This document shows positions 8,879-51,733 of a stretch of 64,000 nt of DNA, in pieces. Location: assembly GCF_056746865.1 (NCBI RefSeq), contig NZ_CM163382.1. One strand, written 5' to 3'. The notes under the pieces are model-generated. The model worked only from the letters and a program-made list of their open reading frames with translations. It did not search any database and had not been told where the DNA came from. Positions within the stretch are counted from its first letter, which is position 1, and each line of letters starts with the position of its first letter. The translations under genes were made by a program, and so were the position numbers.

Positions 8879-9997
<1,119 letters not shown>

Positions 9998-10059
9998 TTA
10001 TATGCCTTTATTTGCTTTTTTATGCCACTGCATACTGATTAACCCTCATTAATCAGTCG

Positions 10060-10170
10060 GCAAGTCCATTCTCCCCAAAAATGCAGAATAATCCAACACG
10101 AATATGATACTAAAACTTTTAAGATGTTTCATTTATCGCTATAGATGTTTCAAAATGTAAATGCAAGGGA
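10060..10170 (-). promoter_or_regulatory. ompC promoter region with OmpR-binding boxes (TTTACATTTTGAAACATCTA... repeats on reverse strand)
   Basis: Repeated GAAACATCT-like motifs upstream of ompC on reverse strand; exact box limits not resolved. Confidence 0.55.
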
Positions 10171-40500: not shown

Positions 40501-41296
40501 CGTTCTGGCTGTAGCTGTCATCAATCGAAATATCAATAAGATAGGGAGCCGACACGCTATTGGTATAAATTGCCCCACCATAACCTTCGGCAGTGTTATT
40601 TGTAAATGCGGTGTTATTTATTATTGTGAAACCTGACGGATGCGTGATATCGCTATTATTATCGGTGACATCGATTGCCCCCCCATCGCCATCACTGTAA
40701 CTTGTTGATGTATATGCCTGGTTGTTATCAAAAATAACTTTACTTAAATAGACGTCATTGTTGATGGTATAAATTCCACCACCTTTGCCGTCATTAGCGA
40801 TGTTATTGCGAAACACGGCGTTAGTGACACTTAAATCGACGACACCGGTATCGTTAGTACCAGAAGAATAGATTGCGCCACCATAGCCACCTGCAACGTT
40901 ATCGGAAAAAATAACATTAGTAAGATTCAGCGTTGAGTTTTCTTTAGCAAATATTGCCCCGCCGTTATTATATTCTCCTGAGACAGTATTATTGGCAAAC
41001 AGAGTCATTCCAGTTTCATTTTCTGGCGATAGAGAAAACTCCGCTCCTTGTTGCAAAAATACGGCCCCACCGCTGGCGTTATTGGTCATATCCGAAAAAA
41101 CCAGCCATTGCCCATCGGCGATGCTCCAGTCCTGCGTAATGCCTGAAAGGCTTTGCCTGCTGGCGTGACAACTCGCTTTGATATCATATCCCTGACATGA
41201 ATCAATGACCGCCGCGACACCGTTAGCAGAGAAAAGAGATGCAATCATTGACGGGAGTAAAGATAAATACTCCTTGCGTAGAAAAATAATCCGCAT
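37583..41296 (-). CDS. yfaL: YfaL, AIDA-type autotransporter adhesin (1237 aa)
   Basis: Signal peptide MRIIFLRKEYLSLLPSMIASLFSANGVAA, pectate-lyase-like passenger repeats, proline-rich linker, C-terminal beta-barrel ending KW. Confidence 0.9.
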   Translation of the reverse strand: MRIIFLRKEYLSLLPSMIASLFSANGVAAVIDSCQGYDIKASCHASRQSLSGITQDWSIADGQWLVFSDMTNNASGGAVFLQQGAEFSLSPENETGMTLFANNTVSGEYNNGGAIFAKENSTLNLTNVIFSDNVAGGYGGAIYSSGTNDTGVVDLSVTNAVFRNNIANDGKGGGIYTINNDVYLSKVIFDNNQAYTSTSYSDGDGGAIDVTDNNSDITHPSGFTIINNTAFTNNTAEGYGGAIYTNSVSAPYLIDISIDDSYSQNGGVLIDENNSAAGYGDGPSTAAGGFMYLGLSEVTFDIADGKTLVIGNTENDGAVDSIAGTGVITKTGSGDLVLNADNNDFTGEMQIENGEVTLGRSNSLMNVGDTHCQDDPQDCYGLTIGSIDQYQNQAELNVGSTQQTFVHALTGFQNGTLNIDAGGNVTVNQGSFAGTIEGAGQLTIAQNGSYVLAGAQSMALTGDIVVDDGAVLTLEGDAADLAALQDDPQSIVLNGGVLDLSDFATWQSCTSYNDGLAVSGSGGTVIGSQDVVDLAGGDNLHIGGDGLVSLANNNSYLGTTQIASGTLVVSDNSQLGDTHYNRQVIFTDNQQESVMEITANVDTRSTTTEHGRDIEMRADGEVAVDAGVDTQWGGLMADSSGQHQDEGSTLTKTGAGTLELTASGTTQSAVRVEEGTLKGDVADIFPYASSLWVGDGATFKTGADQDIQSIDATSSGTIDISDGTVLRLTGQDTSVALNASLFNGDGTLVNATDGVTLTGELNTNLETDSLTYLSNVTVNGNLTNTSGAVSLQNGVAGDTLTVNGDYTGGGTLLLDSELNGDDSASDQLVLNGNTAGNTTVVINPITGIGEPTSTGIKVVDFAADPTQFQNNAQFSLAGSGYVNMGAYDYTLVEDNNDWYLRSQEVTPPSPPDPDPTPDPDPTPDPDPTPDPDPTPAYQPVLNAKVGGYFNNLRAANQAFVMERHDHAGGNGQTLNLRVIGGDYHYTAAGQLAQHEDTSTVQLSGDLFSGRWGTDGEWMLGAVGGYSDNQGDSRSNMTGTCADNQNHGYAVGLTSSWFQHGNQKQGAWLDSWLQYAWFNNDVSEHEDGADHYHSSGIIASLEAGYQWLPGRGVVIEPQAQVIYQGVQQDDFTAANHARVSQSQGDDIQTRLGLHSEWRTAVGVTPTLDLNYYHDPHATEIEEDGSTISDDAVKQRGEIKVGVTGNISQRVSLRGNVAWQKGSDDFAQTAGFLSMTVKW
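38494..38573 (-). repeat. In-frame tandem repeat in yfaL encoding (PDPDPT)x4 linker
   Basis: Four 18-bp units GGATC(G/A)GG(A/G)TC(C/G)GG(T/A)GT... on the plus strand; translation PPSPPDPDPTPDPDPTPDPDPTPDPDPTP. Confidence 0.8.
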
Positions 41297-41829
41297 ATTA
41301 ATCTGACCATCATTTTCTATAAGACGGCATATTTAATCGCATTATACGATATGGGTTATTTTTCTTTTGTAAATTGTTCAACCCGGTGCAATGGCTATTT
41401 TGTTATTATTTCATGAATAATATCAGTGCGTCATAATTCAAGTTAATCACCTTAAGGGATATTAGTTATATTTAAACTGAATTAAAGTAATGAATAATTT
41501 TCTTATAATATAAGGTAAATTAACAAAATGGCTTCGCATTTAACAATAACCGAAGAGAAAACAACCATTTCGATATCAACAATCGCTTACATTCGCTTAT
41601 ATATTGACCAGAACTGATACATCAGATTATGTGATGACTCGTGCTTAGATCAATTTTTGCAATCATTAGCCAAAAGATTAATAAACCATCTATATCAATT
41701 TATCTAACCTATTCTTCCGTTCAAGAAATCGCCGAACAGTTATTTTTAACAAATTTTTCTCTTCCCATTGACTTTCCCGGACACCTTGTCTGACCTAAGG
41801 TGCGCGAAAGCCACTTTTTCCTTCCTGAG

Positions 41830-45948: not shown

Positions 45949-46599
45949 TTACATGGCGTAGTAATACGCTTTCACCTGCTCCCAGTCCGCTTTAGGGATC
46001 GGCTCCAGATATTTTTCCAGCTGGCGGAAGTCATGATTAATCGCTTTATCGCGACGCAAGCGGCGACGACTTTTCTCCAGATCAAGAAAACCAGCTTCTG
46101 CCTTACCTTCTGTTTTCACATAGATATGGCGAACATAACAACAGCCATGCTGACGATTAACGCTATGCATTTTCTTAAACGCCAGCGCCACTGCTTTCAA
46201 CATGGCTTGCCGTACTTCGTCAGAATAGGGCGTTACTGCATGCTGGGCATACCAGTCAGCAATGCTGATGAACCCCGCCATATCTTCAGTCACCAGCAAC
46301 GCGCGCCATTCCCCCTCAATTTTCACCGCTTCACCAAAAACGATCTTCGGCACGATGACACCGGCCCGTTCCAGTTCTTTAATTACCGCAACCTCACGGA
46401 CAATCGTTGGTCGGCCGAAAGGATAACGTACGGAATGAAACAGATGATGCGTCATGCGCTTTACATATAGCTTTTTGCCGTTGCGCTCGACGCATTGCAC
46501 CCCGCTCATACCATTACGGCGATAGTTAGGCTCTTCAACCCAGTCGCCCTCTGTTGCCCACCAGTGATTAAATTCGTCGTGCTTTGCTGAAACTGCCAT
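45949..46599 (-). CDS. inaA: InaA, pH-inducible Kdo-kinase/WaaP-like protein (216 aa)
   Basis: Translation MAVSAKHDEFNHWWATEGDWVEEPNYRRNGMSGVQCVERNGKKLYVKR... Confidence 0.9.
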   Translation of the reverse strand: MAVSAKHDEFNHWWATEGDWVEEPNYRRNGMSGVQCVERNGKKLYVKRMTHHLFHSVRYPFGRPTIVREVAVIKELERAGVIVPKIVFGEAVKIEGEWRALLVTEDMAGFISIADWYAQHAVTPYSDEVRQAMLKAVALAFKKMHSVNRQHGCCYVRHIYVKTEGKAEAGFLDLEKSRRRLRRDKAINHDFRQLEKYLEPIPKADWEQVKAYYYAM

Positions 46600-46679
46600 A
46601 CCCTATCGCCTGTCATTTTTTATTAACGACAATGACTATAGGTGGTTACCTGCGAAAAATCTTAATGAAACGTGTCGTA

Positions 46680-47870
46680 TTAATGAATTTCTTTTGCCAC
46701 TACTAGCGCGACACCGCTTTTACCCTTCATTTGCAGCGCATAGACTCCACCAGCCACTACCACTAATAGTGCACCCAGCAGATAAATCATTCGGTAGCCA
46801 GTATGTGCAACCATCATCCCCATCACACAGGCTCCCAGCGCCAGGCCTGCATCCATCGCATTGAAGAATAGGGAGTTTGCGACACCGATTTTATGCGGTT
46901 CCACTGAACTGATAATCTGCGTCTGAAAAACTGGCGTCACGGAACCATACCCGATACCAATCAACGCGCCAGAAACAACCATCATTATGCTTCCCTGGGT
47001 GTAGCCGAGAACCACCAGTCCAACCGTAAAGAACACAAGGCAAGGGTAAACCACATATTTCGGTCCTTTTTTGTCGCAGACATTGCCGGTAAAGGTACGG
47101 CAGATCATCAGGAAGATAGCGTAGCAAAGCAGGAAATTACTGGCTGCCGACATCAGGTTAAGTTCGCGTGCATAAAGCGCCAGAAAAGCAGAAACCCCGG
47201 CATACGAAAAGGTCATAAAAAAGGTGACCATCGCAAATGGCAACGCCGCGCGATCGAACATGGCGGCGAAGCCCATTTTCGGCTTTGAACCATCAGCATG
47301 GCTGATAACCGGCGGCACTGTCATAATCAGCGACAGAATAATCCCCACCGCTGCCACGCCGGTGCATAACCAGAAAGCCATATTAAAGGCCTCCCAGCGC
47401 GCCATATTCAGGCCAATCCACGGCCCGACCACCATTGCCAGCCCCATTGCCAGAGAGAAAAAACTGATGCCCTCCCCACGTCGGGAGGCCGGGATCAGCC
47501 GCGCGGAAATCGTTCCTTTTACCGTAGTAATAACCCCGAAGGTAATACCATGAAGCACCCGAATAAAAAGCAGTGATTCAATTGAGTGGCAAAAAGGATA
47601 CAACGCAGTGACCAACAAAAAGGCCAGAGAAGAGAGCACCAGAATAGTTTTATTCGAATATTTACCCACCCATTGCCCGGCAAAGGGGCGAATAACAATG
47701 GCGGCAATTAAAAATAAAGTCACCAATAAACCGGCTTTATCAGGAGAGGCATGCAAGCGGTCAGAGATATAAATTGGCAACAATGTTAGTAAAACATAAA
47801 AGACGAAGAAAATAATAAAGCTGATGATGGTTATTGCCCAAAAATCCTTCGTCCATAACTTCTCTTTCAT
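46680..47870 (-). CDS. MFS-family transporter, 12 TM predicted (396 aa), substrate unknown
   Basis: Highly hydrophobic translation with MFS-like loop motif RLIPASRRGEG; divergent from a LysR regulator. Confidence 0.8.
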   Translation of the reverse strand: MKEKLWTKDFWAITIISFIIFFVFYVLLTLLPIYISDRLHASPDKAGLLVTLFLIAAIVIRPFAGQWVGKYSNKTILVLSSLAFLLVTALYPFCHSIESLLFIRVLHGITFGVITTVKGTISARLIPASRRGEGISFFSLAMGLAMVVGPWIGLNMARWEAFNMAFWLCTGVAAVGIILSLIMTVPPVISHADGSKPKMGFAAMFDRAALPFAMVTFFMTFSYAGVSAFLALYARELNLMSAASNFLLCYAIFLMICRTFTGNVCDKKGPKYVVYPCLVFFTVGLVVLGYTQGSIMMVVSGALIGIGYGSVTPVFQTQIISSVEPHKIGVANSLFFNAMDAGLALGACVMGMMVAHTGYRMIYLLGALLVVVAGGVYALQMKGKSGVALVVAKEIH

Positions 47871-48021
47871 ACCCTACCGCCTGTCAGGATGACGCACGCA
47901 GACAACACTCCCGTTACTGCGGTTGCGTCAAATTGTGATGTACTTTGCAGAACAGAAGTATAAATGGCGGCATGCTATTAGAGAAATTAATCGTTTTAAT
48001 ATTATTGATTAGCAAACTCTA

Positions 48022-48900
48022 ATGACTCTTACCCAAATAAATTCTTTACTCGCCGTGCTGGATTACGGTGGCTTTACTGAAGCCAGCAAGCGATTGTTCA
48101 TGACGCAGTCGGCGGTAAGTCAGGCAATTGCTGCCCTCGAACAAGAACTTGGTGTGAATATACTGTTACGCGATCGCCGTAAAGCTATACAACTGACCAC
48201 AGCAGGTCATCGCATTGTGCATCATCTGCGCGCCATTAATCGGGAAGTTAACGCAGTAAAAGAGATAGCCGAGCAGGAAAAGCAGAACCCTCAAAGAACG
48301 CTGAGACTTGGTTGTTTCCCCAGCGTCTGCGCCTGTATCTTACCGGCTGTGATTCGCTACTTTGAAATTCATCATCCGAATATAAAAATTATTCCTTTTG
48401 AGGAAAATAGCACAGCGATTATTGATTCCCTTCAGAATGAATCCATTGATGCCGGTTTTGTTCATTTTCCGGTGAGCGGAATGTACTCCGTGCCCATTTA
48501 TCAGGATAAATTCACCGTAGTGTTACCGCCCAACCATGCTCTGGCAAAAAACAGCACTATTACAGTGGAAGAGTTAATGGGTGAACCATTAATTATTAGT
48601 AAAGGACGCTATGAATTAAGCATTATGGCACTATTTAAAGAAAAGAATATTACCCCACAGATAAAATATGAATTTAATCACCCGGATACAGCGATCAGTT
48701 TTATTCGACAGGGATTAGGCATCGCCTTATTACCAGAGTTAACGCTGAAAACCATTGCAGATGAATTGTGTTCCGTTCCTCTCGAACCAACCTTCTATCG
48801 ACAGATTTCGTTGCTGGCTAAAGAAAAGCCGGTAGAAGGCAGTCCACTGTTTTTACTACAAATGTGTACGGAACAACTCGTGGTGAGTGGAAAAATTTGA
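48022..48900 (+). CDS. LysR-family transcriptional regulator (292 aa); position of the K-12 yfaH pseudogene
   Basis: N-terminal HTH FMTQSAVSQAIAALEQELGVNILLRDRR plus substrate-binding domain; weak Shine-Dalgarno. Confidence 0.8.
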   Translation: MTLTQINSLLAVLDYGGFTEASKRLFMTQSAVSQAIAALEQELGVNILLRDRRKAIQLTTAGHRIVHHLRAINREVNAVKEIAEQEKQNPQRTLRLGCFPSVCACILPAVIRYFEIHHPNIKIIPFEENSTAIIDSLQNESIDAGFVHFPVSGMYSVPIYQDKFTVVLPPNHALAKNSTITVEELMGEPLIISKGRYELSIMALFKEKNITPQIKYEFNHPDTAISFIRQGLGIALLPELTLKTIADELCSVPLEPTFYRQISLLAKEKPVEGSPLFLLQMCTEQLVVSGKI

Positions 48901-49045
48901 TGTAAGACATGAGATTGATGACAAATGCAAGACTGCCTGATTCGCCACACTTAGTTGTACTATAGCCTTTACCAGGCGTAATAATTCGTTTTCACCTGAT
49001 TTTGGCCCACTTTGTGAATTGGCGATATATATTTATCCAGTTGGG

Positions 49046-49177
49046 AGAAGTGACAATGACTCCAGGTAGAAACCGGTATGAAGCGCCCGACTCACTGTCA
49101 AAACCGATTGTTGAGAGTAATGACACTCCGGCGAACAGTACACAGTTTACTCTGGAGCCATTCTCAATCTTCAAGTG
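49046..49177 (+). CDS. Candidate small protein (43 aa) MTPGRNRYEAPDSLSKPIVESNDTPANSTQFTLEPFSIFKWDT
   Basis: GGGAGAA Shine-Dalgarno 6-8 nt before ATG; internal to the 61-aa track ORF 49002..49187; no homology evidence. Confidence 0.25.
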
Positions 49178-49365
49178 GGATACCTAATAACTTGTCAGGG
49201 AAGTTATCAATATCTGTTTGTTACTTATTACCGTATTTATTAACAATAATGATACTTTCTAACATGCGTAAAGGTCTTCGTAATAAAATGAGCTAAATTT
49301 GATAGTGAATATATTTTGCAAAGATTAGATTGTATCTTGTTAACTCACACTACAAGGAATCATTT

Positions 49366-50436
49366 ATGCCAAATACATCTATTCACTTATCTCGCTGTAA
49401 TATTTTACAAAATAATAAATTGCAACCAGCAGAAGTTTACAAAGAATCACAACAAACCGCGAAACTTGAGATTTTTTGCGATGAGTTTCTAAAAATATCT
49501 CAAAGTAGATACGGGTTATCAACCTCAGCAGACAGCATAGCTAATTTATTGGCTTTTTTCACGAAAGCCTCAGATGCAATTGATAGTATCAAGACCCAAA
49601 AAATTGACGTTCACAGTTATGGTTTCGTACCAATAAGACATTTTGTCGAACATGTCATAACGTATAAAAATGAATTTGCAGCGGATTATGAACCCTATAC
49701 CCTTACCTTTACCCGAGGTGAAAACAACGAAGGTATTTTGAGTGTCGAAAGCAAAGAAGGGTTTATTTCACAAAGAACAATAAACTTAAATGAATATGAA
49801 ACTGCAATTAACATCATCAATGAACATGTTATAAAAGAAAATATCCACAACACGGTCCAGTCACCGACAGAAAAAGACATTTCAAAAATAAACAGCTCTG
49901 ATAAACCTTATAAAACCAGCAGTGAGGAAAGTATTAAAAGTCAACTTTACAGCGATCAAAAAAAATATACAGACCTGCTACTACATTCTGAGAAAAATAC
50001 AGAATGGTACAAATACGCATCCTCCGTGGAACGCTATGATAAATTCAAGAATTCTTCTAAGGAAATTAAAAATACCTACAAGCAAATTGTACAAGCGCAG
50101 AAAAAATTGAACCAAATGAAATACATAAATAAATTAAGTGGTGAGCTTATCGATATCGCCGACAAAAAGTTAGCACCATTAATAAATGATAGTTTCAGCT
50201 ATACACGAGATTTCTTTGCTTACTCAAAACAGGAAAATAACATCTTCACGTTTGATAATTCTAAGTTTGAAGATCCAAAGGAAAAAAAAGGTTTAATGGT
50301 ACAACACAGCAATGGACAACTGGTTATTACTGGTGAATATTGTCCTGAAGGTGTGCAAACAGCATTCACTCAAGACCAATATGATAAATTAATAAGATAC
50401 ATTAATATTTTCTTTACTTTTCCGAAATGCGAATAA
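49366..50436 (+). CDS. Hypothetical protein, A+T-rich ORFan (~356 aa), no signal peptide or TM
   Basis: Long ORF in visibly A+T-rich DNA; AAGGA Shine-Dalgarno 8 nt before ATG at 49366; Lys/Asn/Ser-rich; no recognisable motif. Confidence 0.7.
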   Translation: MPNTSIHLSRCNILQNNKLQPAEVYKESQQTAKLEIFCDEFLKISQSRYGLSTSADSIANLLAFFTKASDAIDSIKTQKIDVHSYGFVPIRHFVEHVITYKNEFAADYEPYTLTFTRGENNEGILSVESKEGFISQRTINLNEYETAINIINEHVIKENIHNTVQSPTEKDISKINSSDKPYKTSSEESIKSQLYSDQKKYTDLLLHSEKNTEWYKYASSVERYDKFKNSSKEIKNTYKQIVQAQKKLNQMKYINKLSGELIDIADKKLAPLINDSFSYTRDFFAYSKQENNIFTFDNSKFEDPKEKKGLMVQHSNGQLVITGEYCPEGVQTAFTQDQYDKLIRYINIFFTFPKCE

Positions 50437-50656
50437 TACTTTACAGTATAAACTGCAATACAATTTATTATTGAACCCAATTCATACTATTTAAGGAATA
50501 ACAATGCCCAGTGTTAGCTTTCTTAACGAATGAGTTTTACGCAAATATGTTGGCATCTTTTTTAACAGGATGCACCGGTTAATGAATAGAACAACCGGGA
50601 GTAACATTATTTCTCTTTAGCAGAGGATGGCGCATGAACGCCATCCTGCAATAGCA

Positions 50657-51733
50657 TTACTCTTTATTAAGGAATTTTACTGCCTTATCAGGGAAATCAG
50701 TAAACAGCCCATTTACACCCGCTTTGTTATACAGAGCATCATATAACTGATTCACATCAGTAGTGTATTCAGGCAGTTTATCTGACCGCACGGTATAAGG
50801 ATGCACTACCAGCTTGTTCTGCTGAGCATCTTGCACCATGCCAGTGAGTTTGATATTACCCGGCTGCGATGTCTCCTCAATCAACATATGGTAATCCGGA
50901 CCAATACCATCTGCATATTCCGCCACCTGTTTCATGGCTCCCGGCTTAAACATCCAGTCGTAGTTGTAATTAACCCAGCTTCCGTCCGGCTGTTTCTGCT
51001 GAGTTTCGTTCCAGTCGGTATAGGCAATCAGCTGTACCAGATTGAGGTCCATGCCCATTTTAGGTTCCAGCTCATTCTTAATACGCTTCAGTTCATCGGC
51101 ATCAAAACATTGCAAATAAACTTTGTCGTCCTTACCGGTGTAACCATATTTCTTCAGCACTTCCAGCGTTTTTGCCGCAATATCCTTCCCTTCCTGATGA
51201 TGGAACCACGGCGCTTTAATTTCTGGATAGATACCGATATTTTTCCCGGTAGAGTGATTTAACCCCTGAACAAATTCAATCTCTTCTTCGAAAGTGTGTA
51301 CCCGGAAGTCAGATTTACCCATCGGGAAACGGCCCGGATAAGTCTGTACTTTCTTACCGTTTTCAATATCGAAACCTTCGGTAAATTTCAGTGACTTAAT
51401 TTCATCGAGCGTGAAATCTATCGCGTAGTAACGACCGTCTTTGCGCGCCCGATCCGGGAAACGATCGGCAACATCAGTAACACGATCGAGATAATGGTCA
51501 TGCAGGACAACCAGATGGTCGTCTTTGGTCATCACCAAATCTTGTTCCAGATAATCCGCTCCCTGCGCATACGCCATCGCTTTTGCTGGCAGCGTATGCT
51601 CCGGCAAATATCCACTGGCACCGCGATGGGCGATGACTATTTTTTCGTTGTTATCCGCCGCCATTGCACCGCTTCCCATGACCATAGTGCTCATCATGAT
51701 CGCCATGCTAAGGTTTTTCAGCGTCAATTTCAT
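50657..51733 (-). CDS. glpQ: Periplasmic glycerophosphodiester phosphodiesterase (358 aa)
   Basis: Translation MKLTLKNLSMAIMMSTMVMGSGAMAADNNEKIVIAHRGASGYLPEHT... Confidence 0.93.
   Translation of the reverse strand: MKLTLKNLSMAIMMSTMVMGSGAMAADNNEKIVIAHRGASGYLPEHTLPAKAMAYAQGADYLEQDLVMTKDDHLVVLHDHYLDRVTDVADRFPDRARKDGRYYAIDFTLDEIKSLKFTEGFDIENGKKVQTYPGRFPMGKSDFRVHTFEEEIEFVQGLNHSTGKNIGIYPEIKAPWFHHQEGKDIAAKTLEVLKKYGYTGKDDKVYLQCFDADELKRIKNELEPKMGMDLNLVQLIAYTDWNETQQKQPDGSWVNYNYDWMFKPGAMKQVAEYADGIGPDYHMLIEETSQPGNIKLTGMVQDAQQNKLVVHPYTVRSDKLPEYTTDVNQLYDALYNKAGVNGLFTDFPDKAVKFLNKE

Follow-up and report, generated by a model that had tools for sequence, protein, structure and literature searches.

An ancestral MFS/LysR gene pair and a later A+T-rich insertion appear to share the inaA-glpQ interval of an Escherichia coli chromosome

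The inaA-glpQ interval

The interval between inaA and glpQ was studied in a stretch of Escherichia coli chromosome of 64,000 nucleotides (contig NZ_CM163382.1 of NCBI RefSeq assembly GCF_056746865.1), hereafter the window. The interval holds a gene for a transporter of the major facilitator superfamily (MFS), a divergent gene for a LysR-type regulator (LysR) and an A+T-rich orphan open reading frame (ORF), in that order, and it is set between nrdA-nrdB-yfaE-inaA on one side and glpQ-glpT-glpA on the other. The features on which the argument turns are given below, with positions counted from the first letter of the window.

46680-47870, minus strand: MFS transporter ORF, 396 amino acids (aa); ORF list, Pfam MFS_1 match and a published z3494 primer arm at 47871-47910
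47871-48021: shared control region of the divergent MFS and LysR genes, 151 bp; 24 orthologous spacers aligned
48022-48900, plus strand: LysR-type transcriptional regulator, 292 aa; Pfam HTH_1 and LysR_substrate
48910-50624: module with the orphan ORF, about 1.7 kb, 34% GC, between the LysR stop and the glpQ terminator hairpin
49366-50436, plus strand: orphan ORF, 356 aa from its ATG, or 368 aa from an upstream TTG (49330); open frame
50625-50646: GC-rich hairpin GGATGGCG-CATGAA-CGCCATCC, the glpQ terminator, standing immediately after the LysR stop where the module is missing

A preliminary description of this DNA, made from its letters only, had placed an intact MFS gene (46680-47870, minus) divergent from an intact LysR gene (48022-48900, plus), with an A+T-rich ORF beyond them, and the ORFs and Pfam matches agree with these coordinates. 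The spacer after LysR, put there at some 430 bp, measures 429 bp to the TTG and 465 bp to the ATG of the orphan ORF, and a further 220 bp separate the end of this ORF from the glpQ stop.

The same description had GC below that of the flanks across the whole interval, which turned out to be right for one part and wrong for another. GC averages 51.0% over the window, with a standard deviation of 4.6% among 1-kb windows. The segment 48913-50623 has 34.0% GC (z = -3.7) and includes the lowest 1-kb window of all 64 kb, and LysR, at 43.0% (z = -1.7), gives the claim weak support, whereas the MFS gene, at 48.3% (54% at third codon positions; z = -0.6), lies above the core gene glpQ (45.8%). Since an MFS gene of ordinary GC stands in one interval with an orphan segment at 34%, the interval is not one compositionally uniform islet. 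We read it as two unrelated pieces, an ancestral MFS/LysR pair (46680-48900) and a later insertion (48910-50624), and give this reading a probability of about 0.85.

The MFS/LysR pair is O-island 97

The pair is z3494/z3495, i.e., O-island 97 (OI-97) of E. coli O157:H7 EDL933, a locus that has already been named and partly characterised. The λ-Red homology arms of the published knockout primers for ΔOI-97, Δz3494 and Δz3495, taken from Table S3 of Wang et al. (2024, PMC10819331), map at 46747-46786, 47871-47910, 47984-48024 and 48901-48940 with 0-1 mismatch, and those for z3495 (47984-48024 and 48901-48940) with 0 mismatches. The ΔOI-97 deletion stops 9 bp short of the A+T-rich module. The whole 4.25 kb is 97.4% identical to O157:H7 86-24, and the proteins differ from their O157 counterparts by 3 aa (MFS) and 2 aa (LysR; H67Q, A109V). 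The region is 100% identical to the human isolates 98232 (urine) and GN05505, in a non-O157 lineage.

In Wang et al. (2024, PMC10819331), OI-97 is described as a 2006-bp O-island made up of z3494 (MFS) and z3495 (LysR-type regulator). ΔOI-97 and Δz3495 lowered expression of the enterocyte effacement locus (LEE), HeLa adherence and mouse colonisation in O157:H7, and Δz3494 had no such virulence phenotype. Z3495 is reported there to bind the rcsF promoter and to activate LEE through rcsF, the targets tested there being only rcsF and LEE, and the authors conclude that Z3495 is a laterally acquired regulator (PMC10819331). New beyond this published work are the ancestral syntenic origin of the pair, the mechanism of its deletion, a conserved candidate operator and the delimitation of an Escherichia-only orphan gene.

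Ancestry of the pair

In a cross-genus scan that took one genome per species, MFS orthologues at 79-92% identity were found in Escherichia whittamii, two other Escherichia species, Salmonella enterica subsp. arizonae and diarizonae and eight Citrobacter, as well as in Kluyvera, Klebsiella spallanzanii, Superficieibacter, Phytobacter, Pluralibacter, Pseudocitrobacter and Leminorella. There were 22 syntenic loci in about 10 genera, almost all ordered glpT-glpQ-LysR><MFS-(inaA)-yfaE-nrdB. Nucleotide identity of the pair to the window was compared with that of the flanking genes.

E. whittamii: pair 87.0%; inaA 87.6%, glpQ 88.6%
Escherichia sp. E1V33: pair 86.8%; inaA 86.3%, glpQ 89.1%
Escherichia sp. 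MOD1-EC7003: pair 95.5%; inaA 94.8%
S. arizonae: pair 77%; glpQ 82.5%

Both genes are under strong purifying selection, with a dN/dS ratio (ω) of 0.02-0.08 for MFS and 0.05-0.12 for LysR. Repeat searches, a genome scan and searches of phage and plasmid collections found no integrase, tRNA site, terminal repeat, or plasmid or phage copy for the pair. The simplest history would be vertical inheritance within the Enterobacteriaceae at the junction of nrdAB-yfaE and glpQT, with repeated loss inside E. coli. The preliminary description had taken the interval for horizontally acquired DNA, which does not suit the pair, given its shared junction in about 10 genera, its flank-like divergence and the ordinary GC of its MFS gene, but does suit the 1.7-kb orphan segment; absence from related species at the same site is likewise a feature of the orphan module and not of the pair.

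It is therefore highly improbable that the 4 kb as a whole form one A+T-rich islet which some E. coli gained by horizontal transfer and of which K-12 keeps a fragment. LysR (43% GC) and the orphan segment (34%) do lie below the 51% window mean, the region is variably present in E. coli, and Z3495 is called laterally acquired in PMC10819331 too. Yet a single islet does not account for a pair that is syntenic in about 10 enterobacterial genera and as diverged as its flanks, for the ordinary composition of MFS, for the missing integrase, tRNA, terminal repeat and plasmid or phage copy, or for two halves with different boundaries and distributions.

Two further observations concern the surroundings and the distant relatives of the pair. 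In most other genera inaA is absent between yfaE and the MFS gene, and it is inaA, not the MFS/LysR pair, that looks like a lineage-specific addition at this junction (Escherichia, Pseudocitrobacter). Relatives of MFS at 55-57% identity occur in Desulfosporosinus sp. FKB and Bacillus sp. EB600, Neobacillus species carry a divergent LysR (35%) and MFS (34%) pair, and the best NCBIfam matches of LysR are the Gram-positive regulators GltC, CidR and AlsR. These Gram-positive relatives hint at an old inter-phylum link for the pair. The Neobacillus LysR/MFS spacers were considered as carriers of the enterobacterial box described below and rejected, the box not being shared.

Loss of the pair within E. 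coli

Distribution was counted in 5426 complete E. coli genomes, in which copies of the pair and of the module are all chromosomal and single as a rule. The whole 4.25 kb was covered to at least 80% in 710 genomes; the MFS-LysR core (46787-48653) was present in 1232, the A+T-rich segment (48913-50623) in 1052 and the 3' end of LysR (48654-48912) in 4251. The locus states, obtained by subtraction, are approximate.

Pair and module: 13%
Pair without module: 9%
Module beside a K-12-type deletion: 6%
K-12-type remnant alone: 50%
No recognisable trace: 22%

In K-12-type genomes, position 46786 of the window is joined to about 48666 and the ~1.88 kb between the two copies of an imperfect direct repeat is gone.

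46774-46786: left repeat copy CCCAGCAGATAAA, 13 bp, at the K-12-type deletion junction
48653-48665: right repeat copy CCCCACAGATAAA, 11/13 identical to the left copy

The junction reads CCCAGCAGATAAA followed directly by ATGTGAAT. What remains is 105 bp from the 3' end of MFS and 243 bp from that of LysR, each listed in the annotation as a partial pseudogene. The 68-aa model NF007272 of NCBIfam matches LysR residues 226-292 above its cut-off, and this model and the LysR remnant correspond to what we take to be yfaH of K-12. In 3107 genomes the remnant is 90-95% identical to the window, which fits a drifting pseudogene. As judged from these alignments, K-12 is in a derived state and lost the pair by deletion between the 13-bp imperfect direct repeats, leaving yfaH. 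About 56% of E. coli would have lost the pair through the ~1.9 kb repeat-bounded deletion and about 22% through a larger deletion.

The remnants at the repeat junction and the NF007272 match bear out the statement of the preliminary description that K-12 keeps only a LysR pseudogene remnant, yfaH, and the view that K-12 has largely lost these genes is right for the pair, through a derived deletion at the 13-bp repeat. A comparison of inaA-glpQ synteny across E. coli, which the preliminary description had proposed as a check, confirmed variable presence and the bare remnant in K-12; what it did not return is one islet, as the two halves differ in boundaries and distribution.

In the genomes without a remnant (22%; for example strain FP4), inaA and glpQ are separated by 71 bp of unrelated sequence and a glpQ terminator hairpin that has diverged. 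This would be a second loss, both larger and older, or possibly a replacement. Independent nonsense alleles of LysR, at codons 25 and 127, occur in strains Br_167 and XJ5.2, which still keep the MFS gene, and they indicate that decay of the regulator continues in some lineages.

Some findings sit less easily with simple descent. Only 23% of genomes have the pair, and these cluster in a few clades (also PMC10819331, section 3.5), and cryptic clade I already carries the K-12-type deletion, a caveat on the history of the pair that makes the deletion allele old. In the lineage of E. coli 95-3192 (about 98 genomes, at 80-90% identity) LysR differs from that of the window by 46 aa (dS 2.4), MFS by only 7 aa, and the flanks are 99% O157-like; the donor of this LysR is not among the sampled species. 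A divergent LysR beside an ordinary MFS points to a recombination breakpoint near the control region, and the allele implies that lateral replacement by homologous recombination does occur at the locus. On these grounds OI-97 might have been lost early in the species and then re-acquired laterally by the carrier lineages, in two independent events (Wang et al.). We consider this unlikely, because identity between the window and O157 alleles is 97-98.5%, that of the window allele to Escherichia sp. MOD1-EC7003 (95.5%) keeps pace with the flanking inaA, and there is no vector signature. An old presence/absence polymorphism that segregates by homologous recombination explains the pattern equally well, and descent of the pair with repeated loss is the history that we retain.

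The A+T-rich insertion

Genomes that lack the module mark its boundaries. An uninterrupted junction, GTAAGACA followed directly by GGATGGCG, is found in pair-only E. coli, E. whittamii and Escherichia sp. E1V33, and E. coli with the pair but without the module read TTTGATGTGAGACA followed directly by GGATGGCGCATGAACGCCATCC, the glpQ terminator hairpin standing right after the LysR stop. In other genera LysR and glpQ are separated by 42-127 bp of unrelated sequence. The uninterrupted junction in sister species implies that the module is derived within the E. coli/clade I lineage. It is found with or without the pair, so the presence of the two is separable. Target duplications, terminal inverted or direct repeats (only chance-level short matches were seen) and mobility genes were searched for in the module and not found, and the sole match in a tblastn search against phages and plasmids was discarded as a mislabelled chromosome. 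The module therefore looks, from its boundaries, distribution and composition, like later acquired DNA whose arrival was an event separate from the history of the pair.

The insertion would have split lysR from its terminator. With lysR separated in this way, the orphan gene may be read through from lysR, besides having its own conserved leader. A promoter and terminator scan found fewer sites than in shuffled controls and no terminator-like hairpin between lysR and the orphan ORF, which leaves read-through possible. The module is also probably H-NS-silenced accessory DNA. Both proposals have a point against them: the suggested read-through is drawn from the absence of a predicted terminator, and the suggested silencing from composition.

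The module is a hot spot for IS1, which lies at four different positions in different strains, with sites inside the orphan ORF (~50128-50139), in the stretch from this ORF to glpQ and in the spacer that separates it from LysR; in one strain a deletion bordered by IS1 extends from the MFS gene into the orphan ORF. IS1 was present in the module in about 8 of 30 evenly sampled module-bearing genomes. Elsewhere in the window, the only other 1-kb stretches below 42% GC are 9501-10101, which covers the 5' end of a 367-aa ORF and the DNA upstream of it, next to an 890-aa ORF (by ORF sizes these look like ompC and rcsD), and 40501-41401, the 5' part of a 1237-aa ORF upstream of nrdA that is yfaL-like by its size.

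The orphan gene and its leader

By locus-tag order (glpQ = Z3497, glpT = ECs3125) the orphan ORF is Z3496/ECs3123. Searchable papers contain no mention of Z3496, ECs3121-3123 or OI-98. The frame has 0 internal stops over its 1071 nt, where the five alternative frames have 16-42, and so long an open frame in DNA of 33% GC is not chance; AAGGA stands 8 nt before the ATG. The predicted protein (41 kDa, pI 6.3) is hydrophilic (grand average of hydropathy -0.67), has no transmembrane (TM) segment, is predicted to be mostly helical, and is rich in K, N, E and S and of low complexity.

The protein has no match in Pfam, NCBIfam, PHROG or PADLOC, none among PDB sequences by profile search, and none in phage or plasmid collections. 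Among 5.8 billion clusters its homologues come only from E. coli sensu lato, at an identity of at least 83%, and 1.84 billion representatives hold no genuine distant homologue, otherwise E. coli fragments only. One distant match (P0035, a cadherin-repeat protein) was rejected as spurious, with ~45 residues matched.

An origin de novo from non-coding sequence at the locus would be in keeping with this lack of homologues, with the low complexity and K/N/E/S-rich composition and with the low structure confidence. It is nevertheless a most improbable origin: sister species have only ~42 bp between LysR and glpQ and hence no local precursor, the segment arrives as a 1.7 kb block, and a 356-codon open frame at 33% GC is very unlikely by chance.

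The evolutionary signals of the ORF are mixed. Its ω is about 0.6, close to neutral, whereas inaA and glpQ, compared between the same genomes, give 0.02-0.06, and substitutions fall 51/32/43 by codon position, without a third-position excess. The clade I allele is truly frameshifted, IS1 insertions are common in the module, and AlphaFold2 with a 10-sequence alignment reached a poor predicted local distance difference test score (pLDDT) of 41.8. Some alleles of the open-frame test below were, moreover, picked through protein search, which favours intact ORFs. All of this weighs against a maintained gene. The near-neutral ω, the missing third-position excess and the clade I frameshift would suit a decaying remnant of foreign DNA whose frame has not yet been broken in many lineages, as would the spread of IS1 over several sites in about a quarter of sampled module-bearing genomes and the lack of a homologue or a confident fold.

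We find such decay possible and yet doubtful, since about 3-7 nonsense changes would be expected and none was seen (P = 0.0004-0.04). Among alleles sampled through DNA, 0 of 79 inferred changes are nonsense (P = 0.01-0.04 under neutrality), and among all alleles, a set biased to intact ORFs, 0 of 134 (P = 0.0004-0.005). In O157-type alleles, two A-runs that lie 33 nt apart have a -1 and a +1 indel, by which the frame is restored and 11 residues are recoded. This compensated pair explains the "frameshifted" flag that the NCBI Prokaryotic Genome Annotation Pipeline (PGAP) sets on the window-type allele in an identical strain, and we set the flag aside as an artefact that arises when the O157 allele serves as the reference. 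Conserved N- and C-terminal blocks surround a hypervariable stretch or linker at about residues 156-210, and the ORF has been retained ever since E. coli and cryptic clade I parted. The orphan is probably a real, if weakly constrained, protein gene, the frame of which would be kept open by selection while the protein sequence evolves fast.

The most conserved part of the module is the spacer at 49054-49350, with 0-4 differences per 100 nt against alleles that differ by 25-28 per 100 at the centre of the ORF; it is more conserved than the orphan ORF and, in the clade I comparison, also more than the core genes on either side. It may act as a regulatory leader or encode a small RNA. A permissive Rfam search of 46500-50800 returned only a spurious match to a eukaryotic long non-coding RNA (E=0.06), and no family matches the leader. 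The spacer contains a small ORF.

49056-49187, plus strand: small ORF, 43 codons, with a Shine-Dalgarno-like GGGAGAAG; picked out by gene finders at three loci; 0-3 differences per 100 nt

Against divergent alleles the small ORF has 3 non-synonymous and 0 synonymous differences, i.e., no synonymous-biased pattern, and its homologues are found only in E. coli, with none outside. Its coding status is doubtful. A supposedly divergent homologue (P0041, 74% identical) was rejected as a near-identical allele in which a 1-nt indel of the spacer shifts the frame.

A stronger proposal is that Z3496 is a functional, Escherichia-restricted protein of undescribed fold and function, open since before the split of E. 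coli and cryptic clade I, and expressed from the conserved leader and/or by read-through from Z3495. We regard it as speculative and rather unlikely. If it were true, the orphan might contribute unnoticed to the OI-97 phenotype or serve in a conflict-type function (phage/host interaction), the latter of which would fit its fast evolution. As a taxonomically restricted gene with a maintained frame and a conserved leader, it makes a clean, small test case for the persistence of orphan genes.

Regulator, control region and transporter

LysR has the typical architecture of its family over 292 aa, with PF00126 HTH_1 at residues 3-63 (E=1e-17) and PF03466 LysR_substrate at residues 88-267 (E=1e-36). 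The 24 orthologous spacers between it and MFS are mostly unalignable between genera, except for one near-invariant block next to the LysR start, which is kept from Escherichia to Leminorella.

47977-48012: conserved block ATTAG-N4-AATTAATCGTTTTAAT-N-ATTAG, near-invariant in the 24 spacers
47986-48000: dyad ATTAA-N5-TTAAT, sequence ATTAATCGTTTTAAT, a T-N11-A LysR-type box 22 bp upstream of the LysR ATG
47924-47938: second conserved motif GCGTCAAATTGTGAT, in which TGTGA is invariant (24 spacers)

The second motif, GCGTCAAATTGTGAT, may be a CRP half-site or an element of the MFS promoter. The conserved dyad supports autoregulation by LysR and divergent control, with binding suggested by the phylogenetic footprint. 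The classic divergent regulator/target layout noted at the outset thus has the backing of a dyad box conserved across about 10 genera. In the mechanism that we propose, LysR would bind the ATTAA-N5-TTAAT dyad just upstream of its own start codon and repress its own gene there; together with a small-molecule co-inducer it would activate the divergent MFS promoter, and the exporter would pump out the co-inducer or a related compound. We hold it to be quite likely, with moderate confidence, that MFS is a local target of LysR. Two points count against this: both LysR binding to the dyad and regulation of MFS are deduced from conservation, and the ChIP-seq peak table of Wang et al. (2024, PMC10819331) has, in its accessible passages, no entry labelled z3494 or z3495.

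The MFS protein matches PF07690 MFS_1 (E=1.3e-45) and has 12 hydropathy clusters with a central loop at 183-213. The TM2-TM3 loop carries motif A (GQWVGKYSNK, residues 65-74); of antiporter motif C, looked for in TM5, there is only a partial form, GLAMVVGPWIG (G-x5-GP-x2-G). Its NCBIfam matches are efflux families only, all below their cut-offs (best NF003477, 112 bits against a cut-off of 374). It is predicted to be a DHA1-like, proton-coupled transporter with 12 transmembrane segments (TMS), for which an exporter role is moderately likely.

Comparison with known systems

The nearest solved structures to the MFS protein, and its best PDB sequence matches, are NorA of Staphylococcus aureus and the sugar efflux transporter SotB of E. 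coli, with which it has in common the MFS_1 fold, 12 predicted TMS and motif A. The similarity is weak, however (E=4e-13 for NorA, in the N-terminal half only), and the window protein has a partial motif C and reaches no curated cut-off. With divergent LysR/efflux pump pairs that use a T-N11-A box, the locus shares the layout, here with a 151-bp control region, the dyad beside the regulator start and the HTH_1 and LysR_substrate domains; the window LysR stays well short of the NCBIfam cut-offs of even the nearest named regulator families.

The module resembles the A+T-rich, H-NS-silenced xenogeneic orphan genes of enterobacteria, being at 34% GC in surroundings of 51%, strain-variable, without homologues and a target of IS1. 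Unlike what would be expected of such genes, the repeat search and the phage and plasmid collections gave it neither a mobility signature nor a known source.

Against K-12, where yfaH is a LysR-family pseudogene fragment equal to residues 226-292 of the window LysR, the window gene is intact; K-12 also retains the 105-bp MFS 3' fragment and is without the orphan module. OI-97 of O157:H7 is the same locus with the same genes as in the window, and O157 has the LEE target pathway, which may be absent from the non-O157 lineage of the window. PMC10819331 treats the island as laterally acquired; the synteny across genera instead points to inheritance from an ancestor with repeated loss. On our reading, a virulence regulator published as laterally acquired would be half of an old resident enterobacterial pair that most E. 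coli have deleted, and its control of LEE would be the co-option of an ancestral regulator rather than the import of a virulence module.

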